A DNA stretch of 63,412 nucleotides, counting the filler, from Chrysochromulina tobinii (lineage: Eukaryota): the NCBI GenBank assembly GCA_001275005.1. It is 9 parts of 9 records of this genome, joined end to end, with 100 filler letters (N's around TTAATTAATTAA, not from the genome) between each part and the next. Parts side by side here need not be neighbours in the genome. Positions count along the whole stretch, not along the records: positions 8,233 to 28,080 come from JWZX01000247.1; positions 28,181 to 32,276 come from JWZX01000249.1; positions 32,377 to 36,812 come from JWZX01000250.1; positions 36,913 to 50,393 come from JWZX01000251.1; 5 more parts are not named here. One strand, given 5' to 3'. Under the pieces are notes generated by a model, which saw only the letters and a list, made by a program, of their open reading frames with translations, did not search any database and was not told the origin of the DNA. Position numbers and translations under genes: made by a program. Of the stretch, positions 9,309 through 38,577 are shown in pieces. Positions within the stretch are counted from its first letter, which is position 1. Each line of letters begins with the position of its first letter.

Positions 9309-11885
9309 ATGACATTCTTCTTCCACGTGATCGTGAGCACACTCGCAGCCAGCGTGCTGCCCGTCATCGTGCGCCGTGCTGCGGATGCGCGCTTGCTCAT
9401 CGAGCTTCGGATAGACGGACGACCCTTGCGCAAGCTCCAACGGCCGTCGAACGAGGCGCTGGGAAGCTCACTCGGCAAGGTCGGCAGCGCATTTTCGCCG
9501 CCCAAGAGCGGGGGAAAGAATAGTCTGCAGCCAGCGGACCAGGTCGAAGCTTGCCTCCTATTCGACTCTCGCGGGACTCCTTTCGACTCGTCGATGAGTG
9601 CTCTAGAGGCATGGTCCACCGCGGTGCACTTGCAAGTGGGATCCACGGTGCGTGGCGTGATCTTCGAGCCCGCCGAGGTCGTAGCGCTCTTACTTCCAAC
9701 TGTGCCGCTCATTGGCGTGCCACTCACACCTTGCATCGAGACGCGGGGCTGCGAGCCATGGCAGTGCCGCTGGACATGGGAGAGGCTTCCGCCTGGCTCG
9801 ACGTGGCAGACTGTCGGCTGGACCCGTGATTACACGCCGAGCGCTCACGATGAGGGCGCACGGCTGCGTGTGAGCGCGACGCCTCCGCCCACCTGCACCG
9901 CGGACCAGGCCGCCCTCGCACTCCTTGCATGCACTGCTGAGGCTACCGGGCCGGTGGAGGTCTGTCCTCCACGGCGGCTTCTCGGGCCGCGTGTGCGCGC
10001 CTTGAGAGCCGGAGGGTTGCACGGCGGAGGGTTGCACGGCGAAGGGTTGCACGGCGAAGGGTTGCACGGCGGCGGCGGCGGCGGGCGCGGCCGCCGGTTC
10101 CGAGTGCTCTCGTACAATGTGCTCGCGGATTGCTATTCGCGCCACTGGGACGAGGCCGGCTCGGTGCACTCGTACTGCAGCCAAGCCCTCACGCGCGGTG
10201 CGCATCGGATGCCGAGGATTGCACGCTGATTGCTGGCTGATTGCTTGCTGATTGCAGGCTGATTGCACGCTCATTGCTTGCTCATTGCTGGCTGATTGCC
10301 TCCCTCATCAGGTGCGCTTCGGATGCCGAGGATTCTGCAGGAGGTCCTCGCCTTTGCACCGGACGTGCTGCTGCTGCAGGAGGTGGACCTCACGTGGTAC
10401 GAGCAGTTCTGGAAGCCGGCGATGGAAGGGCGAGGCTACGTGGGCAAGCACACTCTCAAGCGTGGCCGAGGGAGCAGCGAGGGGATCGCATCCTTCGCAC
10501 TCGCCGATGCGTTCGAGATTGTCGAGATTCGCGAGCTCTCATTGTCCCTCGACAGACCCGACTTGCCCGTACCACTCGCGCGGCTGCTCGGCGCTCACAC
10601 GAGCACGCGCGACGCGGAGATCCCGACCGTTGCACAGCTCCTGCTGCTGCGCGAGGCGGCACCGGTCGCGTCGCCGACGGCCGTGCCGCGTCAGGTACTC
10701 GTCGCGAACACGCATCTCTACTTTGCCAACGAGGCGATGCACGTACGCACGATGCAGACCGCCCTGATCCTTGATGGTCTGCGCGAGTGGTCGGACGAGT
10801 TGCAGCCGCAGCAGCAGGAGGAGCGGCAGCGAGCCATCGGCGCGCTGGCCGCCTCCGCGCCAGCCCTCATCGTAGCGGGCGACCTGAACGCCGACGCGAG
10901 CGATGCTGCGCTCCAGTTGCTCACGTCTGGTCTCGTGCGCGCGGACGACCCTGATTGGCTACATGGCGCGCTAAACTGGGCACCGTCACTTGAGCTGCCG
11001 GCGGCCGCGCGTGAGTCGGCATTTGAGCTCGCGGCGGCGCTCATCGACTGCGTGGACGAGCGCTACAACGCTGTGCAAGGGTCGGATGTTGAGGCGGCAT
11101 GGGCGGAGCATCTGCGGCATTCCGATGCGGCGCGGCGCGGCGCACACGAGGAGGCGACGCTCGAGGGCGCGCAGCGCATCGCACGCGAGTTTCACCTCCT
11201 CCGCAAGGCCGTCCAGCTGCCGAGCTCGGCACGCAGCCGAGCGCACAAGCTGCGTGCCGACGCTCGGGACGACGCGAGCGCTCGGGACGGCGCGAACGAG
11301 CTCGAGCGCTTTGCGGCGGCCGTTGTGCGCGACGCGGCCGCTGGGCGTACGCTGCTCGAGAGCGAGGCGCTCGCGGCGGCGGAAGTGGCGCACCAATTGC
11401 GCCTCCCTCTGCGTTTGGTCATCCATGGCGTCGCCCCCTCGGCCGAGGACAGGCAGACTTCCTGGTTTTCTGCCGCGCATGCGCGCCTCGACGAGCTTCG
11501 ATTTTGGCTCGAGGCTGCCCAGGAGGCGCTGCGCACACGCGTCGCATCGGAGGGCGGCGGCCGTTGGCGGCGCGGTGGCGCGGTGGCCGCCGCTGGTCAC
11601 GACCCATCGGCGGCGGAGCTCTGGGCGTTGCGAGCCGCCGGCGTGTCACTCTCGAATCCGAAACCGCTCGTGTCGGTGTACGGCCCGAATCCTTTGCCTA
11701 CGCATGCGGTGCCGCGGTACGCGAACACGCTCGATTGGATCTGCGTCGACAGCCACCACCTCGACGTCGTCGGCGTCGCGCCGCTACCACCCGTCGAGGA
11801 GCTCACGCGCCACGTGGCAATGCCGAGCGTCGAGTGGCCGAGCGACCATGTGTCGCTCTGCTGCGACCTCGCGTGGCGTGAATGA
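9309..11885 (+). CDS. PDE12: PDE12 / CCR4-like EEP-family exoribonuclease; exons 9309-10197 and 10312-11885
   Basis: FRVLSYNVLAD, PDVLLLQEVD, VANTHL, IVAGDLNA, TLDWI, WPSDH; N-terminal WERL...YTPS...GARLRV domain as in PDE12/CCR4. The GT-AG intron 10198-10311 removes an in-frame stop. Alternative ATG at 9174. Confidence 0.8.
10198..10311 (+). other. Repeat-built intron (114 nt) with a 24-nt flanking exon duplication
   Basis: GT...CTGATTGCCTCCCTCATCAG; 10197-10220 vs 10311-10334 match at 23/24; body of CTGATTG/CTCATTG units. Confidence 0.85.
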
Positions 11886-12599
11886 GTTGTATGTACTGTG
11901 CGCCCGAAAGATGTTGTTTCTGTCCGCCCCCCGCCCCCCGGTGTCCGCTTATAATAACCGGCAATCCTTCCCCACTCCCGGTTTCGTCAGAACGCACATG
12001 GAGGGAAGCCGGCAAGCCTCAGAGATTAACCGCACACCATGCCGCACACGTCGCGAAATTTTACTATTTTAGCGCTCGCGCGTCTCGATAGTTTTTGGGG
12101 ATACCTTTGTTATAACCACCACAGGTTGCCTCCTCCTCGTTCACACCGTCTAACGCATGCTCGGCATCAGCTGCGCACGCACTCAGAATCATCCAATCGC
12201 ACTCGGAAAGTCGGAATCAACTCACCCTTTGCACCACCAGAAGAGGGGTAGGCGTAACAACACGAGAGACTTCAGCAACCAGGGTGGGGAAGCCGGCGGT
12301 AGCACTCTAAACATAAAAAGAGACGGTCCCCAGCAGGGATAACTGTCCGAACCGGACAACCGAGCTCAAGACCGGAGTCCGGACCGTCCCGCAGCGGGAA
12401 CCGGCCTAGCCGCAAAAATGGCGCTACCAAAACCGCAGCGACAATGCGCAAATGACACCCACGAATCGCCAGTCACCACATCCCCGATTTGGCGCGATTA
12501 TGTGATGGAGACGGCGCCCACCCGCGATGCGCGCGCTCCATGTTGTGCTGAGCGTCGTGTTGAGCGCATCGCATTAAATTGCGGAATTCGTTTCCGCCC

Positions 12600-14789
12600 A
12601 TGGTGACCGCGCCGTCCATTGGCTTCTCCGCCCAGCCGGACGGCGTGCACGCCGCCAACTCACTACGCTCCGACCGCTTTCACATCCGCGGCCTTTCATG
12701 GTTTGGCGCTGAGGGCGCTGGCGCCGCGCCCGACGGCCTTTGGCAGCGGAAGGCGTCCGATCTGATCGGCATTGTAGCTCGGCTCGGGTTCAACGCGCTG
12801 CGCCTGCCTCTGGCCGTGGATCACGTGCTCTCGAATCCGAGCATCAACCGATGGACGCTGACCGCCAACCCTGAGCTGCAGCGGCTGCGGCACCTAGATT
12901 TGCTCGAGCGCATCGTGCGGCTCGCCGCAGCGCAGGGTCTGCTTGTGATGCTGGACATGCACCGGCTGCGCGCAAGCGTGTGGCCGACGACGCACGGCCT
13001 CTGGTACGACGAGGGCATGCCTGCGACACAGCTCGAGAGTGCGTGGCGACGGCTCGCGCGCACCTTTTGCTCGCACTGGAACGTCTTTGCGGCGGACCTT
13101 TTTAACGAGCCTTGGGGTGCGAGCTGGGGCGACGGCGACCAGGAGCGCGACTGGGCACTCTATGCGGGCCGACTGGGCAGCCTCGTGCTGGAGGAGTGTC
13201 CACGTTGGCTCATACTTGTGGAGGGCCTCGGCGTGGGCTCGTCGGCGCCTAGCCCGGCCTTTTGCGACCTGTGCTTCTGGGGCGAGAACTTTCTGAATGT
13301 GACCGGTGCAGGGGTGCCACGTCTATCGAAGCCCGAGCGGCTGGTACTCTCACCGCACCTTTACGGCCCCGGTACGAACTCGCGCATGTACTACTTTAAT
13401 CGGACCGTCTTCCCCAACTTCCCGGACAACATGGGGCCCATTTGGACGGATCACTTCCTTGCACCCGCGCGCGCGGCGCGTGCGGCGCTCTTGGTCGGGG
13501 AATGGGGCGGGCGGTACGTTGGTGATGATGAGCTCTGGCAGGACCGCTTCAAGGCGTTTCTGCTCGAGAATAGCCTCTCGAGCTTCTACTGGGCTCTCAA
13601 CCCGAACAGTGGCGACACGGGTGGCATCTTACTCGAGGATTGGACAGCGCCGCATGTCGAAAAGCAGCAGATGCTGAGCGAGCTACCGGCGTCCTCGGTG
13701 GCCCAAGCGCTCGCCTCGGTTGGACCCTTTGAGTGCCTCAAGCACGTGGGCGCAGCGCAGGTACCGGCGGCCCTCGGTGGCATCGCCAACGGCCTCTTCC
13801 GCTGCGGTGACGCGCGTAACGGCACGCCCATCTGCTTGCATGCGCAGCAAGCATGTAACGGAGTCTATGAGTGCCCCGACCATACGGATGAGCGTCGGGG
13901 TGCGTGTGCATCGCGCGCGGCGTATGAGGCGGCCATTGCGGTGGGCACTGCTGACAAAGAGAGCGGGAATGAGGCAAGCGGCGGCGGCGGCGGCGGGGAT
14001 GGTGGGCCCCCGGTGGCACCGGAAGTGGAGCCTCTCAGCCAGCCGTGCCTGACCGTCGCTGGCCAGGATGTGCTCCGCCCCTGCGTGCTGCCCTTCACCT
14101 ATCGCGGGGCACGCTTCACGGGTTGCTCTCTGGACGATGCCATCGACGGCAGGGCATGGTGTCCGACGGCCGTGGACGCGAGCGGCCGCTACTCGAGCTT
14201 CGATCATTGGGGCGTGTGCGGGCCGGGGTGCGCCAAGGAGACGGGCCGCCGCCTACACCGCGACGGCTGCAGCCACGTGCAGCGGCAGGCCGAGGGGCAC
14301 GAAGAGGGGCAGGCGGAGGGGCAGGCGGAGGGGCCGGCCGAGGGGGCGGAGCTGCTGAAGCACTGTGCGCCGCCGCCATCGCCGCCGCCAACACCGCCTG
14401 AGCCTCCGGCGGCGCCTCCGCCGCCGCCACCAGCGTCGCTGGCGGCCTTGGGCGCCACGACCGTGTGGGCCGCCTTGGGCGTGACGACGGCGGCATTGAT
14501 CCTCATGAGCGTGGTAGTCGGCCTTTGCACTAGGAGCTTGTTTCACAGCGCCTGGGCTGCGATCTGGGCCGATCTTGGCGGGCCCTCGGAGCTGCAGCTC
14601 GAGGAGGAGGAGGACGACGTCGAGGAGGCCGAGGAGCGCCGGCCGGTTCGAGTGTCGCCGTCCGTCCATGAGAAGCGAACTAGAGCTGGCGCGCGGGAGG
14701 ATACAGACGAGGAGGACGCGGTGCTGCTCAAGGGCCGGGCCCAGCAGACAAGCAGGCCCCTTGCTATGGCAATGGATGGCATGGATTGA
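12600..14789 (+). CDS. GH5 endoglucanase + LDL-receptor class A + fibronectin type II + Pro linker + TM helix
   Basis: GFNALRLP, LFNEPWG (acid/base Glu), SPHLYGP, VGEWGG (nucleophile Glu), FYWALNPNSGDTGG. LDLa: FRC...C...QACNGVYECPDHTDE. FN2: CVLPFTYRG..FTGC...WCPT...WGVC. No signal peptide in this frame, so an upstream exon is possible. Confidence 0.85.
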   Translation: MVTAPSIGFSAQPDGVHAANSLRSDRFHIRGLSWFGAEGAGAAPDGLWQRKASDLIGIVARLGFNALRLPLAVDHVLSNPSINRWTLTANPELQRLRHLDLLERIVRLAAAQGLLVMLDMHRLRASVWPTTHGLWYDEGMPATQLESAWRRLARTFCSHWNVFAADLFNEPWGASWGDGDQERDWALYAGRLGSLVLEECPRWLILVEGLGVGSSAPSPAFCDLCFWGENFLNVTGAGVPRLSKPERLVLSPHLYGPGTNSRMYYFNRTVFPNFPDNMGPIWTDHFLAPARAARAALLVGEWGGRYVGDDELWQDRFKAFLLENSLSSFYWALNPNSGDTGGILLEDWTAPHVEKQQMLSELPASSVAQALASVGPFECLKHVGAAQVPAALGGIANGLFRCGDARNGTPICLHAQQACNGVYECPDHTDERRGACASRAAYEAAIAVGTADKESGNEASGGGGGGDGGPPVAPEVEPLSQPCLTVAGQDVLRPCVLPFTYRGARFTGCSLDDAIDGRAWCPTAVDASGRYSSFDHWGVCGPGCAKETGRRLHRDGCSHVQRQAEGHEEGQAEGQAEGPAEGAELLKHCAPPPSPPPTPPEPPAAPPPPPPASLAALGATTVWAALGVTTAALILMSVVVGLCTRSLFHSAWAAIWADLGGPSELQLEEEEDDVEEAEERRPVRVSPSVHEKRTRAGAREDTDEEDAVLLKGRAQQTSRPLAMAMDGMD

Positions 14790-15284
14790 GAGAGCGCTGC
14801 TACGAGCGCGAAGTGAACCCGAGCCTCTCGGAACACTTTGGTGGTGAGTTGTTGCCTCGCATGATATCGTACCACCGATTCTGTGGGCCTGCTACGATGT
14901 GTTGTCGTAGACGGCCCCGTCGGTCACACCTCCGTCCATGTATTGCGGCCCCCGTGCTTGGGGGTCCGGAGAGTGTGCGCGTTATGTTTCACAGCCAATG
15001 TTTATAAGTCACGTTCACGTTCACGTTAAATTGCCGACACCCAGCAAGAACACCACAGATGAACCATTATTTTTGTGTGAAACTCATCAAGATCAACCTA
15101 CACACACGGGACACCCGTGGGGTCCTGTAAGGTGTGTGTATTCTGAGCGGGCAGTAACAGTGTCGTAGCACCGGCTGTCGCGTCTGTCGTGTTAACGCAC
15201 ACGGGCACACGGTTCACACAGAGACCCTCGACGAAACTGACGGATTAACTGTATGACGAACCCTACCAGTACAGTACCGGGGAT

Positions 15285-15487
15285 CAAGTCAAGTCAAGTC
15301 TATACAGAAACAACAGACAACCAACGGAAGCCTATCGAATGTGCTCCGGAAGCCAGCAGGGGAGGACGGGAGTCGATGGAGATGGCGGAGGGGGATCCAT
15401 CTAGAGGCGACACGTCATAAATGCTGACATACGTGCCCTCGGAGAACAGGTAGGTTGACTTGACTTGACTTGACTTGACTTGACTTG
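15285..15487. mobile_element. MITE-like element with inverted (CAAGT)n / (ACTTG)n termini
   Basis: (CAAGT)3C at 15285-15300, its reverse complement repeated at 15455-15487, and direct repeat GTACCGGGGAT at 15274-15284 and 15494-15504. Confidence 0.55.
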
Positions 15488-15549
15488 TACCCGGTACCGG
15501 GGATATCCACGCACACGGTTTTGAGACGCGGTTGGGCGACGTGATCATC

Positions 15550-16383
15550 ATGGGCGGTGGAAGCGACCTGCAGTTGCTCTCCGGCGGCGAGAATGTGGTG
15601 CTCGGCGTCGTGACGGGTGTCCTGTCCAAGTCGGTCAACTACCCATTCCTCTCGTGGAAAACTACCGTGCAGCAGGGCCTGCCAATCTCGCTCAACCCGC
15701 GGATTGTGTACCGAGGGCTGCCGATGGCCTGCATCAACCTCGGTGGCACCAACGCTGTGCAGTTTGGCTCCACCGGCTTCTTCCAGAAGACGCTTGCCGG
15801 TTTAGGCGGTGGCGCCGACCAGGTGCAAGTCGGCGGCGCCTTCCTCGGAGGGCTCGCCTCTGGAGTGCCGTGCAGCATCTGGGAGCTGTGCATGATCCAG
15901 CAACAGCGCTTCGGCGGCAGCTTGCTCGGCACGCCCCAGAAGTTCGTATCGGAGTACGGCATCTCCTCGCTCTCGCGCGGCGTGACAATGACGTGCGGGC
16001 GTGAGTCCATGTTCACCATGTCCATGCTGGGCATCACTCCGCTCATCCAGCAGAGGCTGGTGAGCGCCTCAGGATGGGAGAAGAACACGGCGCTGGCGGC
16101 GGGCTCGCTGATCGGCGCGCTGATCGCGGGCGTGGTCACCCACCCGATGGACACGATCAAGACGTGCATGCAGGGCGATCTCGGACGTGTGAAATACGAC
16201 GGCATCGTGCAGACTGGCCAGCTGCTCGCAAAAGAGTACGGCGTTGTGCAAGGTCTCTTCAAGGGCCTCTTCTTGCGCGTCTCGCTGATCTCGACCACCT
16301 TCTTCCTCGTGAACACGTTCAAACAGTGGATGGTGCCCGTGCTCTTCCCTCACACGGTCACGCCCGCGAAGAAGGCACTGTGA
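15550..16383 (+). CDS. Mitochondrial carrier (SLC25) family protein
   Basis: 277 aa with three repeats bearing carrier signatures YPFLSWKTTVQQ, IWELCMIQQQR, HPMDTIKTCMQ; YRGL and LFKGL motifs. Confidence 0.85.
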   Translation: MGGGSDLQLLSGGENVVLGVVTGVLSKSVNYPFLSWKTTVQQGLPISLNPRIVYRGLPMACINLGGTNAVQFGSTGFFQKTLAGLGGGADQVQVGGAFLGGLASGVPCSIWELCMIQQQRFGGSLLGTPQKFVSEYGISSLSRGVTMTCGRESMFTMSMLGITPLIQQRLVSASGWEKNTALAAGSLIGALIAGVVTHPMDTIKTCMQGDLGRVKYDGIVQTGQLLAKEYGVVQGLFKGLFLRVSLISTTFFLVNTFKQWMVPVLFPHTVTPAKKAL

Positions 16384-17272
16384 GCTGTGCTCGGCTCCCT
16401 CTTCATCCCTTGGACCTTGGACTTGTCGCTTGAGCGTGGTGTGGCATGGTCATGATGGACAACGGCGGGTGAGGTCAGAGGTGCGTGCGCAGAGCACAGG
16501 ATGTCCCTCTGCTCCCCTGCTCCGTCGTCATCAACAGAGGGCGTCGCGAAGGAAGCGTTGTTGGATCGATGTAGAGTGAAGAGGTGATGCTGATGACGTC
16601 GCGCCGGTCCATACACCATAGTACTACTAGGCATGTCTCTCTCGAGAGTGTCGAGAGGCTCGACTCGACGTCGAGGAATGGTTACCCGGAGGACTTGTTT
16701 GTTAGCGGCCCCGGTCGCCGCCGCTGCCATCCACGTTGAATGGGAGAGGGTGTCTTTGTTCGGTTGCATGTTGAAAAGTATTCTAGTTTGTCGCTTTCTT
16801 GTCCGCCGGCTGCGTGTTCCGTCGAAGCTAGGCGGATGCATTCCGATCCGGGGCGGCATCTTGAACCCCCGCGCCGCCCGCCCTATTTCCTCCGCCCCTT
16901 CGGGCAGGGGGCGGAGGTTCATTGGTCCCCCCCAATGAGAAGCCCCGTGTTCGCGATTGCATGTACAAGAATGGTCAGCCGTGCATGCCCCGTGCAGCAT
17001 GTCGTGTCCACATGTGCGTTCGTCGTCGTCGAGACTCTTCGTGGATAAATCATAAAAGTATATTATTATTAAGTGATGTAAAAGCCGGAGGAATTCACCG
17101 AGACCCCTGGGCTCGGTAGCTGTTGTGTGCAGCGGCCGTGCCGGCCACCGATCCGACCCGGTCGAGCATGCATGCATCAGTAAAGAACATAATTGAATTC
17201 CCAAAGCGGGACCCCAACATTTCTTCTTTGATTCCGTCGAAATTCCTTCTCCCCGGAAGGTCACGCTGCGGC

Positions 17273-18457: not shown

Positions 18458-19525
18458 CTCATAGACTGGCAACACTATTCGGACTATTGATACCAATGAC
18501 GCTGGAAGATGACCACGAGCCGCAGAAACGCGTCGCGCTGATTCTACGCTGATTCGGGAAGAGCTCGGCTGAGCACAGAATGAACGGCTGCAAGAGGAGC
18601 TCTCGGGGAGCTTGTAAAGGCTGCAAGAGGAGCTCGAGGAGCTCACGAGGAGCTTGTACAGAAGCGCGCAGGCATGAATGCAGATCTGGGGATCCATGCC
18701 ACTTGATCATTCCATGCTGCCCTCGCAAGGGGCGCCGTCTTGGGAGACACCGCACCGGCAGCTCGCTGTCTGCTGGCTGTCTGTCCAGGCATGCTGTCAC
18801 TGGAGGTGGGTTCTAAGTGTGCACACTAGAGGGTGGGACCGTGGAGACTGGAGTAAAGTACTGTATGTAAACCGAACAGGGGCGCAACGGGGTTGGCACG
18901 CCTCTCTCGTCTGCTCTCTCTCGGATGTTTTGTGGACTTGCGACTTCGGACTTGCACTTGGAGTACAATACGCACTCTCTCGAGCGACTCGTCTCCGTTT
19001 GTCGGCTATGCTGCCATGTACCGGTACTGCACTGAGTCGCTTCTACGAAGGGGCGTTGACCGAGGGGTGCGGACAATTGGGTGCGGAGCCGTCCCGCGTT
19101 GAGACGGCGAATGCCACACACCGACCCAAGGCGGCGCACGAGTGAGCGAGTGCACTTACATCCTCCCGCTCATTTCAGGTTTCGTCCAGACGTTGAGGTG
19201 AGCTAGGGCCGCGACGAAACTGAACTGCGTCGTCTCGGGCGCATGTGCGACGTGACGGCCTTCATGCTCGTCCTCATCTGAGCAGACATGACCTAGACTC
19301 AGACTGGCGATCGCCTGCTGGGCACGCTGCCCGCGATTCTTCAGACAGTCGTCGGAAATTCCGGCGGGCTTGGTTCCTGTTAAAGGCCATGATTTCAACA
19401 AGGGTGTCGATCTTAATGAAGGATAATGAACCCTCCGTACGGTAATCCCGTTCCCGAAAACGATGCCGCCATATGGTAGTCGATGTGCGTAATTGGTATC
19501 GGGATGATGTTCGTGATGGGATTTC

Positions 19526-20824: not shown

Positions 20825-20861
<37 letters not shown>

Positions 20862-25509: not shown

Positions 25510-27765
25510 TCAGCCAAAGACATCAAATCCATCACTGATGTGCTGCTGGCCCAAGGTTTGGTAGAGCGCTGCAGATTCCCGCGGTGCTGTCGGCCCGATC
25601 GCTGTCGATGCTGCGGCCGCACTGGCGGCCGCCCGCCTCACGAGCACCTCATACACCTTGAGCCGACTACGCACAGCCGCTCGCATCGCCACAAGCTGCG
25701 GGCACAGACTCTCGGCATGGCTGTCGGCGGAGCTCCGTGGCTCCGGCGCTTTGTAGAGCTCGGGTTCGTCAATTGAGCTCTGTGGCGTATTCGCAACCCT
25801 CGGCGCTACTAGACTTGTGGATACCGGCACTGCTGCTACAGGCGCCGTATCGAGCGCTGCTTTGGGCGCCTCGTCGTCGCTCGAGGCGAGCCTTGCAAGA
25901 CTGACGGCGACAGCTCGCTCCACCTCGTCGTGCTGCCGCGGCGCTTCCAAGGTCTTGGCGGGCACAGGCGGCAAGCCGGCCGCCGCGCTCGCCATGGCGC
26001 TCGCCAGCATGCGTGCATGCCACGCCGAGGGCGGCACAGCGGACTCCTCCGCCGCAATGACGCGGCTGAGTGGTTCACCTCGGGCGCCAGCGCTCATCAC
26101 AGCGCTCAGCAGTGCCTCGTGCAGAGGGTCGTTGCTCGCCAGGCTGCAGGCTGCCGCGGAGGCCACCGCGCGATCGACCGACCACAACGGCAGAGGCGCC
26201 AGCGCACAAGCTTGCTCAGCGGAGAGCGGCGGCGGTAGCTCGACGGCCGCCGCCGCATTCCGCGTGAACCACATTGCGAGCGCGAGCCGGCAGCCGTGGT
26301 GCACGCGGCCTACAGAGTGAGGATTCTCTGCTCCAGACGAAACACGGCGAGGAGATAAATTGAGATTGTGATGACGAAACACGGCGAGGAGAAGCCATCA
26401 GTGGTCATCAGAGGTCATCAGCGGTCATCAGAGGTCATCAGCGGTCATCAGCGGCACAGACGAAACACGGCGAGGAGAAGCCATCAGCGGTCATCAGAGG
26501 GTCATCAGTGGTCATCAGCAGCAATCAGCAGCAATCAGCGGCAATCAATGGAGCTCCAGGGCCATCAGCGGTCATCAGCGGTCATCAGCGGTCATCAGCG
26601 GTCATCAGCGGTCATCAGCGGAACTCAACGGCCATCCTCGGTCACCTGCTCCGGACGAAAACGTGAGGAGATCGCCTGCGGTCGGCTCGATGACCGTGTC
26701 GCGCTCCGCGTCGTGAAATGCAAAGGAGCCGCCTTCAAAGTGCTCACCCTGGCTCGTCAGGTACAGCACGGCCGACACGTCGTAGTCGGCCGCGTTGTGC
26801 TGGTCCACATGCGGCTCCCAGTAATCCTGGAGCGCGCGCAACGCCCAGGTAGCTGGGGCCACCGCCTCCGCCATCTCCGGGGCGTGGAGGCGCACCAGCA
26901 AGGCGCCGCGATGGTAGAGCGCCGAGGTGGGCACCGGTGTGGGCGCCGGTGTAGCGGCCGTCGGCCCCTGCGTGGGCGCGTCGCGCCTGCTCGAGCTCGT
27001 CGCCGGATGCTCCGAAGCGTCGCGCTTCGTGCCGCGGCGCGTGCCGCAGATCGGGCAAGTCTCGGCGCCCAAGTCGCGCGCAGCCGCGTCGTCCTCGGCG
27101 CACGCGCGCCGCACCCGCTCGAGCAGATGGAACAGTGTGGTGTAGCTTGCCGCGGAGCCTGTAGCAGCAAGCCGCTCGGGCAACCCTTCGACGACCGCGA
27201 GACTCGTCTGACCGCCTCGGCGGAAGGCGGAGACCATAGCGGCCAGCGCTGCAGCCCGGAGCTCGGTGCACTCTGACTCGGATGCGAAGCCGTTACGCAG
27301 ACGGCGAAAGCCGCTGCCACCCGGCGCAGCCTGCACGCCAGCTGATCTGTCGAAGGGTGCAGCGTCGTTCCCATCAACCTCTTCAACATGCGGAAGCAGT
27401 GTCGGTAGCGGTCTTTCACAGCCACTTGATGTTCCCACCGCGCCGCTCAGACCACCGATGGCGTCTTGCAAGCAGAGCAAAATGAGCTGTAGCGCGTGCG
27501 ACTCGCGTGCGCCCTCGTTAGCCACCGTACGCGCTCCTAGGCTTCGGAACCAGAGCGTGTGCGCCGCGCGAAGCCAGTGCTCTTCCATTTCGGACATCTC
27601 ACACGTCATTCCGTGAACAAAAGCGCAGGCCTTTCCGTTTCCCCACAGAGCGGGGGGCCAGCCGCGCTGCCCAGGCGCGCCTGAGAGGCGCCCCTGATGA
27701 GGGATGTAATTGCGCCTGACCAAAGCGCCATATCGGTCATGCATAGTGCCTTTAACAATTGGCAC
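25510..27765 (-). CDS. 2OG-Fe(II) oxygenase (OGFOD3/prolyl-hydroxylase-like); exons to 26646 and 26327-25510
   Basis: YWEPHVD (HxD), SAVLYL, FEGGSF. Splicing out 26645-26328 yields FSSGA|ENPHSVGRVHHGCRLALAMWFT with the distal His and Arg. True start uncertain. Confidence 0.8.
26328..26645 (-). other. Repeat-built intron (318 nt); its 3' end duplicates the end of the upstream exon
   Basis: GTGACC...many CTGATGACC/CTGATTG units...TTTCGTCTGGAGCAG versus exon end TTTCGTCCGGAGCAG. Confidence 0.85.
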
Positions 27766-28266: not shown

Positions 28267-28556
28267 GGAGCACCTGTCCTCGTGCCGCCCGAGGCGGCTC
28301 GTTTCATGTCTGCGTGGCGCTCTAGTGGCGCTCCGGGATGCAGGCGTGCTGCCGCCGGAACTCGACCCCCACTTATCCGCACTACAAGTAGTTATGCGCC
28401 CTTGCACCGTCTCAAGGGCAAGGGCTCAAGGGATGTGGCAAGGGATGGCTCTGCACCGTCCGTCTCCGACACCGACAGATTCAAACTTTTCCAAACCTCC
28501 TCTGATCGGTCGGTCGTCAACTTTGCGTTTGACTGCGGACGAAATAAAAGTCAGAT

Positions 28557-30627
28557 GTGTGGGGAGTGCCCAACATGGCTGTTGAAACGTTTTACCGGTA
28601 TAAAGATAATGCACACGTGTGTGCTCGTCGCTTTGATCGAAACGGTTCAGCAATGAACGGGGGCGTGTGGCCCGCTCTGCAGCCGATCGGCTGCAGATCG
28701 GCACCCAAGCTCGAAATGCACTTTCCACGACGCCAAGCAGCGCGCAGCATCAAACTGGCCCATGGTGGCACTGTGCTCGCGCGCCACTTCTCAACTAGTG
28801 CACTGCTGGCGAAGCCCGTCAGCCAAAGCCCGTCAGCCAGCCGCAGACTCGATGAAGCGCTCGATGCTGTACGAGTGCAGCATCGCTCGCCTCCAACGCG
28901 CCCTCAGCCATCCGACCAGTGCGGTGCTATCAGCTTGAGTGTCGAGGCCATCGTGACGATGGCGCAGCGGCGGATTCGGCGGATGGAACTGGAGCTCCGT
29001 GGCCTACATCGCGTTGCTTCAGGGATAGAGCCTCCTCAGGCGGCCAGGCGATCGGAGCACCTTCGAGTTCTCGAGGAGCTACTTGGCCTCGAAGAGGAGC
29101 TCAAAAGGTATCAATTACAGCAGTGGCGGGCGGACGAGGAGCTTGCGCAGGTACAAGCGCGTGTCGCTACGATGGAGTCGGAGGCTGCACAGGGTGAGGC
29201 GAAACGTGAAAGCCTCGCAGACACCGTAGCGGGGCTGCAAGCGGCATTGCAGCGTGCGACGGAAAAAATGGTAGCAGACGCTGCCAAAGCAGAGGCGGCC
29301 TCGAAAGCGCAGGCGGCAGCGGCCGCGGCCGTGGCCGCGGCCTTGCAAGCGCAGGTCGACAAGGCGTCCACGGACTTGCAAGCGCAAGCTGATGAGGCGG
29401 CGCGCGTGCGTGCGCAACTTGAAGCCGAGCTGCAAGTGCAGGCCGACAAGGCCTCCGCGGGTTTGCAAGCGCAAGCGGCTGAGGCAGCGCGCGTGCGTGC
29501 ACGTCTCGAAGCCGAGCTGCAAGCGCAAGCGGACGAGGCGGCGCGCGTGCGTGCACAGCTCGAAACCGAGCTCGCCGAGCGAACGGCGTGCGCCTCGCAG
29601 CTCGAACAAGCTTGCAAGCGGATGGTGGCCGAGATGCTCAAGGAGCGCACGGCCGGTGACTCCTTTAAGGACACGCTTGAGGCTACGCTGGCACAAGAGC
29701 GCGCGCGAATGGAAGCGAACGCCGCCGAAGCAGCTGCGGCCTTGCAAGCGCAAGTCGACGAGTCGGCTTACGTGCGTGCACATCTCGAAGCAGAGCTAGC
29801 CGAGCGGACGGCAAACGTCTCGCAGCTCGAGCAGGCATGTACGCGTATGGTGGCCGAGATGCTCAAGGAGCGCGCGGCCAGTGACTCATTTAAGGACGCG
29901 CTTGAGGCCGCCAAGCGGTCCGCGGCCTTGCAAGTGCAAGCGGACGAGGCAGCGCGCGTGCGTGCGCATCTCGAAGCCGAACTGCAAGCGCAAGCGGACG
30001 AGGCGGCGCGCGTGCGTGCACATCTCGGTGCCGAGAAGGAGGCGCTTGAGGCGACGCTGGCACAAGAGCGCGCGCAAATGGAAGCCAACGCTGTCGAAGC
30101 AGCCGCAGCCTTGCAAGCGCAAGCCGAAGAGCAGCGTAAACAAGAGGAGAGGGACGAGGAGAAGCGCGTTCAACACTTGACCGAGATGATCGCTCGCAGC
30201 ATCCTCCGAAGGAATCTGGCTCGCGGCTGGACCGCCTGGCACGGCATGTGGGAGGAGAAGGTGACCACCAAGCGGTCCGCGGCTTTGCAAGCGCAAGTCG
30301 AAGAGGCGGGCGCGCATGCGTGCACATATCGAAGCCGAGCTAGCCGAGCGGACGGCGAACGCCTCTCAGCTCGAGCAGGCATGCACGCATTTGGCGGCCG
30401 AGATGCTCAAGGAGCGCGCGGCATGTGTTGCCGAGAATAAGGCGCTTGAGGCTGCGCTGGCACAAGAACGCGCGCGAATGGAAGCGAACGCCGCCGAAGC
30501 AGCTGCGGCCTTGCAAGCGCAAGTCGACGAGGTAACGAAGCTGCGGGTGTTCCTCAAGGTGATGCTGGTCCTCGGCCTCTCGATCAAGGACGAGAGCGAG
30601 GAGGAGTCGACGAGCATGCGCCTGTAG
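28557..30627 (+). CDS. Repetitive coiled-coil protein with a +1 frameshift near 30310
   Basis: Repeated LQAQADEAARVRAxLEAE and LAERTA..SQLEQAC..M.AEMLKER units. At ~30304-30315 the unit reads GAGGCGGGCGCGC instead of GAGGCGGCGCGC, and the repeats resume in frame 30316-30627. Start uncertain. Confidence 0.6.
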
Positions 30628-30835
30628 ATAGTTAACCTTCTTTTTTACCCATTAACGCAGTACCTGAGATCCGCATCCGGGCGGCGGGCGCCCGTCCGCG
30701 CCGTGGTCGCAGCCGTGTTATATAATCGGACGGGAGGGGACACGTCGACTAGTTCCGTGACGCGAGGAAGTCCGGTCGACCTCCACCTGTACGGTACCTG
30801 ATAGCCATGCGACACGCGCTTTGCGTAGCCGTGAA

Positions 30836-30927
30836 TCTGCGGAGCGGCCGAGCCTCGGAGGCTGGAGGCTGAGCCTGGCTCTCTGCGGAGCGGCCGAGCC
30901 TCGGAGGCTGGAGGCTGAGCCTGGCTC
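30836..30927. repeat. Perfect 46-bp tandem duplication
   Basis: TCTGCGGAGCGGCCGAGCCTCGGAGGCTGGAGGCTGAGCCTGGCTC twice. Confidence 0.9.
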
Positions 30928-30970
30928 GCAGGGCCACTGTCCAGGGGACGAACCCTCGTCCCCTTGATTA

Positions 30971-32276
30971 ATGGAGAATCCGGATAAGATGTCTGTTCCC
31001 GACCTCGCTCCTGACGCGAATTTTGACGCCATGAATGTCGCGACCCCTGGCAAGGACGCCCCGAACCTGGACAAGACCGCACCAAAGCGAGCGCTGTTCT
31101 CATCGCCGTCTGCGGTTGCGCACAACAAGACCAACATCTCAACACCCACAACGACCGACAAACACAACACCCGAGAGAGTAAGAACCTGATGGACAACCG
31201 GCACATGCAGCTCGCCGACAACGAGCAGATGGGCGACGTATGCAAGCAACTGCGCTTCATCTTCATCGAGAAGGCACACGCGAGCGAGGACGCGGTGAAT
31301 GACATGCGAAAGCAGATGACGGAGATGCAGACGAGGCAGAAGGCGGAGTTGGAGATGCTGACGAGGCAAAGGGAGGAGATGCACACGAGGCAGATGGCGG
31401 AGATGAAGATGCTGAAGACGATCATCGAGCAGCAGTGGACGATCATCGAGCAGCAGCAGACGATCCTTCGCAAGCTGCAGCAGACGATCAACAACCTCAT
31501 GCAGGCCGTCAAGCGCATGATGCTGCAGCGGTACAAGGAGGAGCAGGAGCAGGAGAAGGAGCAGGAGCAGGAGAAGGAGCAGGAGGAGCAGGAGCAGCAG
31601 AGGCAACAGGAGGAGGGAGAGGAGCAGCAGGAGGAGCAGCAGGAGGAGCAGCAGCGGCAGCAGGCAGCAGCAACAGCACTAGCAGACAGCAGCACTAGCA
31701 GGCAGCAGCAACAGCAGGCAACAGCGGAGCAGGATCAGCGGGATCAGCAGGAGCACAGAGTGCAGATCGACGGCAAGTGGCTCAGTGCGCGTGCAGACCG
31801 ACGACAAGCGGCTCTACAGCGGCAGGATAGGGAGCGGGAGGAACAGCAGTGGTTTGCCGTCACCGCCAACATCCCCACTACCTTCACCGCCTCTGCCATC
31901 GCCGCCCCCGCCATTGTCACCGCCGTCGTCCCCACAACCGTCTTAACCGCCGTCCCCACCATATCCACCGCCTTCACCGCCTTCGCTGTCACCACTGCCG
32001 TCACTGCCGTTGCCGTCACCGCCGTCACCATCACCGCCATCGCCTGCGCCCCCACCGCCATCTCCACCGCCGTCACCCATGCCATCTCTACCATCTCTAC
32101 TGCCTTCATCGCCTTCGCCATCGCCGCCATCGCCACCGCCATCTTCACCGCCGTCACCTCCTCTATCTCCATCGACTTCACCGCCTTCGCCGCCTCGGCC
32201 ATCGTCTTTGTTCCCTCTATCCCCAGAACCCTAGGGCCACGCAAACTCAGTGCGCGCGCAGACCGACGGCTAGCAG
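30971..32276 (+). CDS. Hypothetical Gln/Glu-rich coiled-coil ORF, truncated by the contig end
   Basis: Long open frame from ATG 30971; coiled-coil, poly-Q/E and a Thr/Ala low-complexity tract; LSARADRR occurs twice. Confidence 0.4.
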
Positions 32277-32376
32277 NNNNNNNNNNNNNNNNNNNNNNNN
32301 NNNNNNNNNNNNNNNNNNNNTTAATTAATTAANNNNNNNNNNNNNNNNNNNNNNNNNNNNNNNNNNNNNNNNNNNN

Positions 32377-35300
32377 TCGGATCGCACACCGAGAGGGTAC
32401 CGAGAGGGCCGCCGAGGGGCGGCCACAAGGCGGTCGCATGCCGCGCGCGCGCGATCGTCGCAGACCGCTACTGATCCCATCGCAGGCCGATCGCCGCGGT
32501 GGCTCATCATCTCAACTATGATTGCATCATGGATTACCATCGTGACTGTGCTCACCGACCGGGCTATCGAAAGGCAGCCGCGCACGACGATCGCAGTGTA
32601 CCGCCCGCTACGTGCGAATCAGAGGCTAAGTGCCAGTGATGGCTCATCAACCTGATCGTGATTGCATCATGATTACGTCATGATTGCTCACTGAGGGGGG
32701 CGCCGAGAGGCGGCCAGCGCCTCGCTCGCGCGCAACGCGAGCCGACCGCCCGCTACGAGCGAATCAGGGATGAGTGCCAGTGATGGCTCATCAACCTTAA
32801 TCAACCTGATCATGATCGCATCATGATTACGTCGTGATTGCTCACCGAGGGGCCGCCGAGAGGCGGCCAGCGCCTCGCTCGCGCGCAACGCGAGCCGACC
32901 GCCCGCGACGAGCGCATCAGAGGCGGAGTGCCAGTGATGGCTCATCAACCTTGATCAACCTGATCATGATTACATCATGATTACGTCGTGATTGCTCACC
33001 GAGGGGGCCGCCGAGAGGCGGCCAGCGCCTCGCTCGCGCGCAACGCGAGCCGACCGCCCGCTACGAGCGCATCAGGGATGAGTGCCATTGATGGCTCATC
33101 AACCTTAATCAACCTGATCATGATCGCATCATGATTACGTCGTGATTGCTCACCGAGGGGGCCGCCGAGAGGCGGCCAGCGCCTCGCTCGCGCGCAACGC
33201 GAGCCGACCGCCCGCGACGAGCGCATCAGAGGCGGAGTGCCAGTGATGGCTCATCAACCTAATCAACCTGATCATGATTGCATCACGATTATATCGTGAT
33301 TGCTCACCGAGGGACTGCCGAGAGGCGGTCAGCGCCTCGTTCGCCCGCTTACCAGCGATTCAGAGTCTGAGTGCCTTGGATGGCTCATCAATAGCTCACA
33401 CCAACCTGATGTCATGAGTGCATCATGATCACGTCATGATGGCTCACCGAGGGGGCTGGCGAGGGGCAACCAGCGCCTCGCTTGCGCGCAACGCGAGCCG
33501 ACCGCCTACCGACCGCCCGCTACGAGTGAATCGGAGGCTGAGCGCCAGTGATGGTTCATCAGCCTGATCATGATTGCATCACGATTACGGCGTGATCGCT
33601 CACGACAATGGGCCGCCGAGAGGCGGCCCTCGCTTGATCGCGCGATACGTGTGCCGACCGCCCGCTACGAGCGCATATATAGGAGAGTGCCAGTGATGGC
33701 TCATCAACCTTAATCAACCTGATCATGATTGCACCACGATTACATCGTGATTGCTCACCGAGGGGGCTGCCGAGAGGCGGCCAGCGCTTCACTCGCGCGC
33801 CACGCGCGCCGACCGACTGCTCACAAGCGAACCAGAGGCTGAGTGCCAGCGATGGCTCATCAACCTGATCATGATGGCTTCATGATTACATCGTGATTGC
33901 CCACCGAGGGGCCTCCGAAGGGCTGCCGAGAGGCGGCCCGCGCCTCGCCCGCTGACCACGCGCGCCGACCCCCCCCTAACGAGCGCTTCGGAGGCTGAGT
34001 GCCGGTGTTGGTTCATCAGCCTGATCATGATGGCATCATGATTACATCCGGATCACCCACCAAGGGGCTACCGAGGGTACCGTGATGGCTCATTGAAGGG
34101 GTGCCGAGAGGCGGCCCGCGCTCCGCTCACTCGCTGCGCGACGATTGTACACCTCAGCGTATACCGGCAGACCACGCCGCACCGCACCGCACCGCTCCGC
34201 ACCGCACCGCATAGTAACGACGCGCGAGATGCGTCGACGGCCCGCTACCGATCCGCGATCGCGTAGCAGGCGGATTGTCCGCAATGGCTCATCATATCAA
34301 TCATGAGTGCATCATGATTACCTCGGATCGCACACCGAGAGGGTACCGAGAGGGCCGCCGAGGGGCGGCCACAAGGCGGTCGCATGCCGCGCGCGCGCGA
34401 TCGTCGCAGACCGCTACTGATCCCATCGCAGGCCGATCGCCGCGGTGGCTCATCATCTCAACTATGATTGCATCATGGATTACCATCGTGACTGTGCTCA
34501 CCGACCGGGCTATCGAAAGGCAGCCGCGCACGACGATCGCAGTGTACCGCCCGCTACGTGCGAATCAGAGGCTAAGTGCCAGTGATGGCTCATCAACCTG
34601 ATCGTGATTGCATCATGATTACGTCATGATTGCTCACTGAGGGGGGCGCCGAGAGGCGGCCAGCGCCTCGCTCGCGCGCAACGCGAGCCGACCGCCCGCT
34701 ACGAGCGAATCAGGGATGAGTGCCAGTGATGGCTCATCAACCTTAATCAACCTGATCATGATCGCATCATGATTACGTCGTGATTGCTCACCGAGGGGGC
34801 TGCCGAGAGGCGGCCAGCGCCCCGCTCGCGCGCAACGCGAGCTGACCGCCCGCTACGAGCGAAACAGAGGCTGAGTGCCATTGATGGCTCATCAACCTTA
34901 ATCAACCTGATCGTGATTGCATCATGATTACGTCATGATTGCTCACCGAGGGGGCTGCCGAGAGGCGGCCAGCGCCTCGCTCGCGCGCAACGCGAGCCGA
35001 CCGCCCGCTACGAGCGCATCAGGGGCTGAGTGCCAGTGATGGCTCATCAACCTAATCGTGATTTCATCATGATTACGTCATGATTGCTCACCGAGGGGGC
35101 CGCCGAGAGGTGGCCAGCGCCCCGCTCGCGCGCAACGCGAGCCGACCGCCCGCTACGAGCGAATCAGGGGCTGAGTGCCAGTGATGGCTCATCAACCTAA
35201 TCGTGATTTCATCATGATTACGTCATGATTGCTCACCGAGGGGGCCGCCGAGAGGTGGCCAGCGCCCCGCTCGCGCGCAACGCGAGCCGCCCGCCCGCTA

Positions 35301-36510
35301 CAAACGCATCAGAGGCTGGGTGCCAGTGATGGCTCATCAACCTGATCATGATGGCTTCATGATTACATCGTGATTGCCCACCGAGGGGCTACCGAAAGGC
35401 TGCCGAGAGGCGGCCCGCGCCTCGCTCGCTAGCCACGCGCGCCGACCGCCCCCTAACGAGCGCTTCGGAGGCTGAGTGCCAGTGGTGGTTCATCAGCCTG
35501 ATCATGATGGCACCATGATTACATCGTGGTTGCTCACCGAAGGGCCGCCGAGAGGCGGCCCGCACATGATCACGCGCCACGAGCGCTGCCCGCCCGCTAC
35601 GAATGCATCAGAGGCTGAGCGCCGTCGATGGCTCATAAAAACCTGATCATGATGGCATCATGAGTACGTCATGATTTCTCACCGCGGGGGCTGCCGAGAG
35701 AGCAAAAGCCTCGCTCACGCGTAGCTCACGCGAGCGACACAAGCGCCGTCCGCCTGCTACGAGCGCATCGGAGGCTGAGGGCCAGTGATGGCTCATCGAC
35801 CTGATCATGATTCCGTCACGATTACCTCGTGATTGCTCACCGAGGGGGCGCCAGTGATGGCTCATCGGCCTGATCATGATGTCATCATAATCACGTCATG
35901 ATTGCTCACCGAGGGAACTGCCGAGAGGCGGCCAGCGCCTCGCTCGCGCGCAACGCGAGCCGACCGCCCGCTACGAGCGAATCAGAGGATGAGTGCCCCT
36001 GATGGCTCATCAACCTGATCGTGATTTCATCATGATTACCTCGTGATCGCTCACCGAGGGGGCTGCCGAGAGGCGGCCAGCGCCTCGCTCGCGCGCCACG
36101 CGCGCCGCCCGCCGGCCACGAGCGCATCAGAGGTTGAGGGCAAGTGATGGCTCATCAACCTGATCATGATGGCATCATGATTACATCATGATTACCTCGT
36201 AATCGCTCACCAAGGGGGCCGCCGAGAGGCGGCCCCCCATGCTTCGCTCGCGGGCACGCGCCGCGCGCCGGCCGCCAATTAACGGTTGCAACACCGGCTG
36301 AACGCTTGTGATGTGGCTCATCATCTTAATCATGATTACATCATGATTGCTCATCGAGAGGGGCTGCCGAGAGGCGGCCCACGCTTCTACACTCGCGCGA
36401 GGCACGTGCGCCGACCCCCCCTAACGAGCGAATCTACAGAGGCTGCGTGCCCCCGAACCGATCATGATTGCATTATGATTACATCGTGATTGCTCACCGA
36501 GGGGGCTGTC
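32377..36510. repeat. Satellite array, ~144-155 bp monomer, roughly 25-30 copies
   Basis: GTGCCAGTGATGGCTCATCAACC recurs at 32630, 32774, 32928 and onward; the monomer continues TGATCATGATTGCATCATGATTACGTCATGATTGCTCACCGAGGGGGCYGCCGAGAGGCGGCCAGCGCCTCGCTCGCGCGCAACGCGAGCCGACCGCCCGCTACGAGCG. Confidence 0.95.
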
Positions 36511-37040
36511 CGCTGTGTCGAGAGGCGGCCCACGATGGCTGATCGCAACGTGGGTCGAGATGGTGCGAAGAGGGTTCGAAGATGGTGCCCCTCGCACGGG
36601 AGGTGGTGGAGCGCAACGTAGGCGCGTGGATCCGCGAGGTCCGCGCCCACGTCATGCAGTCCAGGGCCGCTCAGAGCCACAACTGTCGAGCGGAGGGAGA
36701 GAGCGCGCGCGCGCATACGCATGAAATCGGCGGGTGGCGTCGTGGCCTTCCGGACTCGACGGTCTGAGTCTGGCGGACCACGCGCCCATACCCTGTCAGA
36801 GCGTCCCTGGACNNNNNNNNNNNNNNNNNNNNNNNNNNNNNNNNNNNNNNNNNNNNTTAATTAATTAANNNNNNNNNNNNNNNNNNNNNNNNNNNNNNNN
36901 NNNNNNNNNNNNCGAGAGCGCCTCGGAGATCGAGATCGTGACCTCGCGGAGCATCGCGCCCCTCGCCTCGGAGATCGAGATCGTGACCTCGCGTAAGATT
37001 CTGATGACCTCTGATGACCTCTGATTACCATCCTCATCAG

Positions 37041-37119
37041 GTGCATTGCTCGCCTCCATTCGACCCTGATGACACTGATGACCTCACTGATGACCTCCCT
37101 TGATTGACTCCCTCATCAG
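37041..37119 (+). other. Repeat-built intron module (79 nt) directly preceded by another module ending at 37040
   Basis: GTGCATTGCTCGCC...CTGATGAC units...TGATTGACTCCCTCATCAG; the next exon starts GTGCACAACTCGCC. Confidence 0.65.
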
Positions 37120-38577
37120 GTGCACAACTCGCCGGGCGAGGACATCGCCGTCCTGCTGCTAGGGTGTGAAGAGCCCATGCTCAAGATGCTGATGACCCTG
37201 ATGACCTCACTGATGACCTCCCTGATGACCTCCCTTGATGGCCATCCCTAATTAGGTACGAAGAGCCCATGCTCAAGATGCTTCGCGAGGCCAACCCGGG
37301 GCTGCAGCGGCGCTTCTCACCCGAGTCCGCCTTCCACTTTGCCGACTTTTCGGACGGGCAGCTCGAAGAACTGCTGCACCGCACCGCCGCGGCCGCCGGG
37401 CTCAAATGGTCGAGCCGCAAGGTGCGCAAGGCCGCGCTCGGGTTGCTGATTCGAGAGCGGATCCAGCCCAACTTTGGCAACGCGGGCTCCGTCAACTCGC
37501 TCCTCGGGCGCGTCAAGTCGGCGGTGGCCGCGCGCGGAGATGCGCGCGAGATTATCCTCGCCGATCTGGGGCTCGATGAGAACGCGGCGGGCGGCAGCGC
37601 TAAGACCGAGGCCCTCCTCGCCGAGGTCGAGGCCGAGATGAGCGAGCTGTTCAAGGCGGAGCATCTGCGCGCTCACTTTAACGACCTGGCCGCGAGGCTC
37701 ACGACCCTCGAAAAGGATGGCGAGCTCGATGCATCTCGTCCCGCCGACAAGGTGGGCTCGTACGTCTTCGTGGGCAACCCGGGCACCGGCAAGACGACGG
37801 TCGCCAAGGTGCTCGCCAAGTGGTTACGCGCCAAGGGCGTGCTCGTGTCGGACGTCGTGGGCGAGGAGTCGGCGCTCAACCTGCAGGGCGAGTACCTCGG
37901 CCAGACCAAGGAGAAGGTCAACAAGCTCATGGCGTCGGCCATCGGGGGGCTCGTCTTCATTGATGAGGCGTACAATCTCGGCGGCTCGGGCGGCCGGCGC
38001 GTCTCACTCTATGCGCAGGAGGCGGTGGACCAGCTCACGTACTGCATGACGGAGGACACACATAAGGGGCGTACAATCGTGGTACTCGCCGGCTACGAGC
38101 GCGAGATGAATGAGATGCTTGCGAACGCCAACCCGGGCTTCCGCTCGCGCTTCAAGCAGCGCATCGTGATGCCTGATTGGGACGCTGCCGATGTGGTCGA
38201 GTACCTTCGGCGGCGGTGCACCAAGAAGGGCATCGTGCTCGCGGATGCCGCGCAGCGCGTGCTACTCGGTGGCATTGACGATGTGCGCGAGCGGCTTCTG
38301 ATTGCCGCTGATTGCCACGTACGGCCTCTGATGGCCTCTGATTGCATCTCATTGACACGCACTGCCTCTCGTGGTCACTGATTGGCTCCCTCATCAGGTG
38401 CGCAAGCGGCCCGGCTGGGCGAATGCGCGCGACGCGGAGAGGCTGTACGATGAGCTCGAGGGCTTGCGGGCTGTGCGGCGCGCCTCAGCTGGAGATGAAG
38501 AGGAGCGGCCGACCTTTACCGAGCAGGACGCGATCTCGGCGCTGCTCGCCTTCGACAAGCTGCGCCCACCCGCCTAA
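37120..38577 (+). CDS. CbbX/SpoVK-type multi-domain AAA+ ATPase, 5'-partial; exons 37120-37163, 37256-38282, 38398-
   Basis: Spliced IAVLLLG|YEEPMLKMLREANPGLQRRF, PNFGNAG; Walker A VFVGNPGTGKTT, GEYLGQT, Walker B VFIDEAY, VLAGYE, NPGFRSRF, PGWANARD. Confidence 0.8.
37164..37255 (+). other. Repeat-built intron (92 nt) with a 27-nt exon duplication
   Basis: 37164-37190 vs 37256-37282 match at 25/27; CTGATGACC units; ends TGATGGCCATCCCTAATTAG. Confidence 0.85.
38283..38397 (+). other. Repeat-built intron (115 nt) with a 13-nt exon duplication
   Basis: GTGCGCGAGCGGC vs exon GTGCGCAAGCGGC (12/13); CTGATTG/CTGATGG units; ends CTGATTGGCTCCCTCATCAG. Confidence 0.85.

Follow-up and report, generated by a model that had tools for sequence, protein, structure and literature searches.

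How most new introns arise is unexplained, and a window of 63,412 nucleotides of joined DNA from the haptophyte Chrysochromulina tobinii (GCA_001275005.1; the whole stretch analysed) raises the question of how an intron can come to begin with a copy of the exon that follows it. Four such introns, each with a GT start, a CTGATTG/CTGATGAC-type body and a tail ending in AG, had been read from the sequence at 10198..10311, 37041..37119, 37164..37255 and 38283..38397, and all of these parts are found there. A protein encoded in the window agrees with one of C. tobinii at every position over 354 aa. The 5′ ends of the last three match the next exon at 11/14, 25/27 and 12/13 positions, as reported, and that of the first at 22/23 rather than 23/24. 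Introns built of an exon copy and a tail are real and widespread in Chrysochromulina, and the best reading of their origin, to which we give about an even chance, is local template-switch copying of half-introns.

Intron 1 (10198..10311, plus strand) lies in a PDE12-like EEP gene on JWZX01000247.1 and consists of an exon copy, 11-nt repeat units and a tail; homologues are contiguous at this site. The copy of the exon 2 start (10198..10220, plus strand) is the source of the GT donor and keeps a His codon of the homologues whose exon 2 counterpart is now Leu. The 20-nt family-1 tail (10292..10311, plus strand) combines a branch-site-like CTGAT, a pyrimidine tract and AG. In RNA run X15 the letters of the exon 1 end precede the 3′ end of intron 1, giving the junction 10197|10312. 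Runs X16 and X18 contain a short arm that fits splicing, at depths of 8.6 and 7.4, beside an intron-retaining arm at 4.7 and 2.8, respectively. An assembly artefact as the source of the duplication is ruled out, since both copies are spanned by RNA contigs of two runs and differ from each other. The PDE12-like gene is absent from freshwater run X21.

The other three segments lie on the plus strand in an AAA ATPase gene on JWZX01000251.1. The contig opens with an intron-like stretch (36913..37040, plus strand) that ends in a further tail (37021-37040), overlooked in the original prediction, and does not encode the upstream exon of homologues; segment 37041..37119 (exon copy, body and tail), which abuts that tail, is therefore the final module in a compound intron rather than an established free-standing one. 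An exon of 44 nt recognised from homologues (37120..37163) separates it from intron 3 (37164..37255), which comprises an exon copy, a body and a variant tail. Comparison with homologues confirms that the reading frame is kept across 37119|37120 and 37163|37256, and two RNA contigs that begin at 37255 are compatible with the latter junction. Intron 4 (38283..38397), with exon copy, body and tail, is crossed by an RNA contig of run X16 that joins 38282 to 38398; over 37255-38282, a stretch with 2-3 times the baseline DNA depth, this contig and the window disagree at 15 letters, so that the contig may derive from an allele or paralogue. The RNA joint tables were dominated by repeat artefacts. Two of the four proposed junctions are spliced in RNA. 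Removal from GT to AG, as in spliceosomal (U2) introns, is documented by RNA for introns 4 and 1 and by homologues for the rest, and the homologues confirm the frame that splicing had been expected to restore.

The intron positions are absent from homologues. Unspliced ORF calls of homologues pass through all four window sites, and the P0004 cluster is continuous at these sites yet carries the tail elsewhere. Downstream of intron 1, an empty CAG|GT site (10694|10695, within 10690..10700, plus strand) corresponds to the starts of proteins P0122 and P0160, which open with a translation of the tail; their first five residues match the variant of window intron 1, which occurs in 1/174 tails. P0121, P0124 and 14 other alleles among those listed are continuous at the site. 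A 99%-identical allele thus seems to have gained an intron here whose tail is the rare variant of the neighbouring intron, although the P0122 case, known from protein alone, could instead reflect a deletion that runs from intron 1 up to the site. No filled and empty allele pair was seen at the DNA level. Annotation is affected as well: assemblies are interrupted in introns of this kind, and gene models come out cut short or fused (P0124).

The scale of the class was assessed at 143 loci chosen by the tail itself on contigs other than the window, none of which overlaps it; their tie to the window organism is indirect and consists of the same tail, libraries of similar type and a likeness of 99% in four culture/lake locus pairs. 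An upstream copy of the next exon's start, 11-55 nt long (median 23), is present at 56/128 tail-bearing 3′ ends on these contigs, as against 0 in ~3000 cross-pairs, which places the match well beyond chance and bears out the idea that a long, variable exon duplication supplies the donor. A relaxed set has copies in 69/159 cases, with a pooled identity of 1635/1707 and 30/69 perfect. Among the 51 copies without a preceding tail, 38 start with GT, 9 with GC, 2 with GA and 2 otherwise, and independent left and right frame calls agree after splicing at the copy start in 37/49. Donor-like exon starts persist at tails without a long copy (36/51 GT, background 36%). Mismatches between the copies neither cluster at donor positions nor show a clear third-codon excess (18/13/11). 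The insert between the copies bears the AG and spans 19-159 nt; at the 19-nt minimum the repeat body is dispensable, so that the simple repeat, once taken as a defining part, is not one. Within 8/51 bodies the downstream exon is copied again in direct orientation (0.3% in the null), and within none in inverted orientation. At least two tails occur in 13/55 loci, a figure that lacks a sound background density. Rfam returned 0 matches in the window, so that readings of the CTGATGA motif as ribozyme or snoRNA are unsupported.

The same anatomy recurs with other sequence. A second tail family, unrelated to the first and mostly without the repeat body, has the exon copy in 15/28 cases (null 0.14%). 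In a 2OG-Fe(II) oxygenase gene, a putative mirror-type intron (26328..26645, minus strand) has its own GT donor, a 10-nt unit array and no family tail at a site empty in homologues; its 3′ end (26328-26356) is copied from the end of the upstream exon (25/29) and supplies the AG.

Likeness between introns is local. Bodies are shared by 17/77 same-contig pairs at most 2 kb apart against 3.9 expected (15/60 against 2.8 on culture-type contigs only), leaving 60/77 neighbour pairs without a shared body, and by 0/15 pairs more than 2 kb apart. Counted per contig, private body variants are shared within 2 kb in 12/27 against 3.3 expected (p=5e-5). In the window, a 26-nt string is common to the bodies of module 37041-37119 and intron 3 and occurs in 0/162 other introns; the alignment score of this pair, 35, is equalled or exceeded by unlinked introns (35, 39). 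Neighbours' exon starts have at least 6 nt in common on 7/27 contigs (0.94 expected), and such prefixes are not clearly commoner in body-sharing pairs (3/17) than in other neighbours (4/60). Microhomology of at least 2 nt marks the 5′ junction in 18/44 scorable cases (of 69) against a 17% null. The exact shared suffix including the tail does not rise in neighbours because these were found by a relaxed pattern, and there is no bias in direction (5 vs 3). Neighbour likeness could also stem from gene conversion after independent insertion.

Under local template switching, synthesis would begin at a G|GT(R) site in an exon and copy 11-55 nt of exon. It would then switch, often at 2-4 nt of microhomology, to the body of an intron already present, as a rule no more than ~2 kb away, and proceed through that intron's AG, so that branch site and acceptor come ready-made, before returning through shared exon-start letters to the start of the same exon stretch, which would be copied a second time. 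The product would be exon copy, half-intron and exon, spliced from copied GT to copied AG with the mRNA unchanged, as shown for two window introns. The setting may be DNA repair or replication, and the local template either DNA or the gene's own nascent RNA. In a mirror event the 5′ half would be copied and the upstream exon end duplicated. Unit slippage and whole-module re-duplication would follow, in keeping with allelic differences that are observed. Against local copying, the uniformity of the 20-nt tail on unlinked contigs calls for strong selection or a source in trans. With confidence somewhat short of even, we extend the proposal to an element-free chain reaction in Chrysochromulina, in which any intron seeds another within ~2 kb when repair synthesis places a copy of its 3′ (or 5′) half inside a duplicated exon stretch; thousands would have been gained, with intron families that expand by descent along genes and escape introner screens, and lake populations would still be polymorphic for the process.

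A fixed 3′ end, a variable 5′ end, variable duplication, 5′ microhomology and tandem copies are features of non-LTR insertion. These introns share them, with a 3′ end flush with the duplication, truncated 5′ ends (inserts of 19-159 nt), target-site duplications of variable length, junction microhomology and tandem tails, and a non-LTR enzyme might have copied short tail-ending RNAs (excised introns or a SINE-like master) in trans into nicked exons by target-primed reverse transcription, the duplication giving the GT. Non-LTR introners exist (PMC12130899). We nevertheless consider this route unlikely. Dispersal independent of the donor is not seen, there is no A-rich 3′ end, and a reverse transcriptase domain occurs in 0/24 ORFs scanned in the 63 kb of the window. 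Of the routes originally suggested, templated synthesis at a staggered break fits; a single tail-defined element moved by reverse transcription is not the best reading because bodies resemble those of neighbours and not genome-wide masters, a second, unrelated tail has the same anatomy, and the mirror intron reverses the polarity.

Turnover of older introns is less probable still. Tandem duplication across the 3′ splice site, exact loss of the first module and gene conversion would make the duplication a sign of turnover and not of gain, in keeping with the 14/56 copies that follow another tail (as at 37041), the variation of module number between alleles and the frequency of internal repeats (39/71 against 13/72 controls in a loose test that counts unit repeats). 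Yet homologue sites are empty, one allele has an apparently new intron of its own, exon starts are donor-like even without a long copy, and the origin of the first intron is left unexplained. A Daphnia-type origin, in which staggered breaks are repaired with random filler and selection then brings about convergence on a lineage-wide branch-site and acceptor consensus, is very unlikely: the tail is a good splice signal and end repeats are described from such repair (PMC4202315), but convergence alone cannot yield a tail of 20 nt, two distinct families and private bodies held in common, and repeats here are 2-5 times longer. The P0122 allele also suggests that even the youngest introns have their full tail. 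A MITE-like DNA-transposon introner with the short inverted repeat CTGATGA/TCATCAG is largely refuted and scarcely credible, for while the most frequent units complement the final 7 nt and a Harbinger-type DDE ORF lies at 60891-62192, a 7-nt inverted repeat begins just 4/51 inserts (as the claimed lack of such termini implied), duplications of 11-55 nt replace a fixed short one, folding is no stronger than in shuffles (z +1.1 to -1.3), and no end-to-end identity is found.

Local copying, if true, yields new introns without a transposon. Introners in the sense of Gozashti comprise many related introns at unrelated new positions, as found here (143 loci, empty homologue sites), and similarity reaching both boundaries, which is absent: 5′ ends are locus-specific exon copies, and the 3′ part alone is common. 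Current screens demand similarity at both intron ends and have therefore scored C. tobinii as introner-free; the published survey lists 0 families, so that the introns were not already catalogued there. The process predicts a simple screen for all eukaryote genomes, intron 5′ end against next exon, and its long, dated footprints (both exon copies and a donor that can be traced), left in an alga that is in culture and has been sequenced, make intron birth directly testable.

New introns from existing introns are known from same-gene intron pairs in Oikopleura. The literature searched holds no account of this tail or anatomy, and the tail string was not found in the introner-paper supplements searched; some supplements and subscription papers beyond that search may hold one. 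Family 5 of Chrysochromulina sp. TARA (PMC9860276), also haptophyte and TIR-less, is set apart by its description, with a 4-bp duplication and opposite polarity. The haptophyte E. huxleyi fam24 (PMC12130899), TIR-less and described as 'co-opt 5', carry 3'' with 10-bp terminal direct repeats, differs by description in its 5 members and 2-nt duplication call. In Symbiodinium and Polarella glacialis introner-like elements (classes 4/5 and 6/8/10; bioRxiv 10.1101/2020.10.14.339549), as here, the element brings the 3′ splice site, the target duplication supplies the donor with its 5′ end and the next exon start is biased to G-GT/GC. Their duplications are fixed per class (3-8 nt), with inverted repeats in Symbiodinium, whereas the introns here have duplications of 11-55 nt and neighbour-derived bodies, and lack both TIRs and full-length family identity. 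Tandem genomic duplication (PMC3443670) likewise obtains a splice site from an exon segment duplicated at a protosplice site and leaves the mRNA unchanged, but both sites come from duplicated AGGT without an insert, while here the two copies flank a half-intron of 19-159 nt that bears the AG. In Daphnia pulex, neointrons from staggered breaks (PMC4202315) share the exon-end direct repeat at the intron's far end and frequent internal repeats; their end repeats measure 4-12 bp and the filler is mostly unknown, as against 11-55 bp here and filler that can be traced to other introns. Sense-oriented descent from existing introns is shared with intron transposition, fungal introner-like elements and sister stwintrons (PMC3443670, PMC8469720), but those introns are seamless, whole and often stably structured, in contrast to a half-intron with no stable fold and a long duplication.

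Intron 1 (10198–10311, in a PDE12-like gene) and the segments at 37041–37119, 37164–37255 and 38283–38397 (intron 4) of an AAA ATPase gene carry the repeat bodies and common 3′ tails that the original prediction ascribed to them. The 5′ end of each copies the start of the next exon with 22/23, 11/14, 25/27 and 12/13 nt matching, respectively; only the first departs from the predicted counts (23/24). The copy inside intron 1 encodes His as in homologues and the exon encodes Leu, so the intron 5′ end is former exon sequence. Segment 37041–37119 has the predicted position, body and tail, but its upstream neighbour is an overlooked fifth tail (37021–37040), and the real upstream exon is absent from the contig. 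The window joins nine contigs with N spacers between them, and its source is C. tobinii or a very close relative, since the first 354 residues of the PDE12-like exon (10312–11885) are identical to the C. tobinii protein P0124.

The predicted splicing is exact in RNA contigs for introns 1 and 4. Removal of intron 1 leaves the junction 10197|10312; in two runs a form retaining it accounts for about one third of the combined depth, although contig depths are a poor measure. The contig that joins 38282 to 38398 differs at 15 letters of the exon before the intron and may represent an allele or paralogue. DNA depth over 37255–38282 is 2–3 times baseline and RNA contigs differ there at up to 15 letters, which marks the AAA ATPase region as multi-copy or allelic. 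In the C. tobinii model P0124 (10312–14786), the PDE12-like exon runs on into the cellulase downstream and exon 1 is missing; intron 1 probably gave rise to this annotation error.

The introns are missing from homologues, which are contiguous at all four sites; unspliced ORF calls on contigs of 8–38 kb (P0001, P0004, P0125 and P0136 clusters) run unbroken through them. The P0004 cluster starts with a tail translation, which makes its sequence genomic and part of the same intron system, yet three of the window introns are missing from it. Two alleles 99% identical to the window protein, P0122 and P0160, open with a translated tail; its position, 10694|10695, is continuous in the window, P0121, P0124 and 14 further alleles among the matches listed. 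The first five residues of that translation equal the window intron 1 variant, found in 1/174 tails, and on protein evidence P0122 and P0160 appear to carry an allele-specific intron. Unit and module numbers differ in two allele pairs. Intron gain in this system is likely ongoing.

An exact tail search of metagenome DNA returned at least 143 loci and at least 182 unique sites with sufficient flank, 128 of them terminal. The predicted exon match recurs there: a copy of the next-exon start (within 200 nt upstream, score at least 10, length 11–55 nt) lies at 56 of the 128 terminal tails in the loci listed, against 0 in ~3000 cross-pairs and 3/126 at a shifted anchor, and 42 of the 56 have no other tail directly before them. 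With a relaxed tail pattern, 69/159 sites have a copy, 51 without a preceding tail, and 47 of these 51 begin GT or GC. In 37/49 cases, splicing at the copy brings the independently called reading frames of the two sides into agreement. Where a tail has no long copy, the exon start after it still resembles a donor and 4–9-nt matches are in excess (over a background that is not frame-matched), suggesting the same origin with an eroded or short copy. Exon copies at L047, L133 and L033 begin GA and mark candidate GA-AG introns; L007, L012, L019, L111 and L118 show head-to-tail tails and modules whose exons have zero length, candidates for recursive splicing.

A second conserved 3′ tail family (core GCAAGTGCTCACCACGGCG, pyrimidine tract, CAG) occurs in locus flanks at L022, L054, L064, L067, L068, L076, L134 and others, and is not seen in the window. 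It has the same exon duplication at 15/28 sites, a count that leaves out 9 motif matches without a called AG and includes several matches that are modules of one compound intron. P0131, a homologue with 50% identity that comes from a different organism, holds, judging from the protein, an in-frame intron built to this plan but with another tail, lying 5 nt away from the site in the window. On the minus strand, a mirror intron at 26328–26645 shows the opposite polarity: its AG comes from a copy of the upstream exon end (25/29 nt matching), and homologues are contiguous there. L032 and L075 look similar. P0215, a 2OG oxygenase homologue with 44% identity, stops roughly one base away from this intron, possibly a parallel gain. 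The window also contains a ~154-bp tandem satellite (32646–34068, 9 copies) whose TGATTGCAT-like motifs resemble intron units, and a minus-strand ORF (60891–62192) with a DDE_Tnp_4 (PIF/Harbinger-type) transposase domain.

Bodies are shared by 17/77 same-contig pairs at most 2 kb apart (3.9 expected) and by 0/15 pairs farther apart; per contig, sharing is 12/27 against 3.3 expected. Microhomology is present at both insert junctions, and 8/51 bodies contain extra direct copies of the downstream exon. Taking this local relatedness, the microhomology, the internal exon copies, the second tail, P0131 and the mirror intron together, we prefer a local process of copying, independent of sequence, to a single element. 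Against local copying, the majority of neighbouring introns are unlike one another, conversion could mimic the neighbour signal, and the sequences compared include no filled/empty pair at the DNA level. A hybrid, in which copying proceeds via the gene's own nascent RNA, may also apply. The fixed 3′ end and the variable duplication would follow just as well from target-primed reverse transcription, an improbable insertion route that leaves the neighbour effect and the mirror form unexplained. Features of non-LTR insertion, of templated insertion by polymerase theta and of the Oikopleura same-gene introns serve as background for comparison.

This mode of intron gain is real, and parts of it (exon duplication, templated insertion and copied splice signals) are already known. 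As a whole it is apparently undescribed in the available portions of the introner and intron-gain literature (PMC9860276, PMC12130899, bioRxiv 2020.10.14.339549, PMC3443670, PMC4202315, PMC8469720, PMC3488318, PMC11282704, PMC4580454, PMC12480563); one introner survey gives C. tobinii 0 families (PMC12130899). Tests of the tail introns for a fixed TSD, a TIR and a stable fold found none of these, in line with the predicted lack of TIRs and variable-length duplication. The tail introns differ from introners in end-to-end similarity, TSD and TIR, but they operate like those that co-opt the 5′ splice site and carry the 3′ one.
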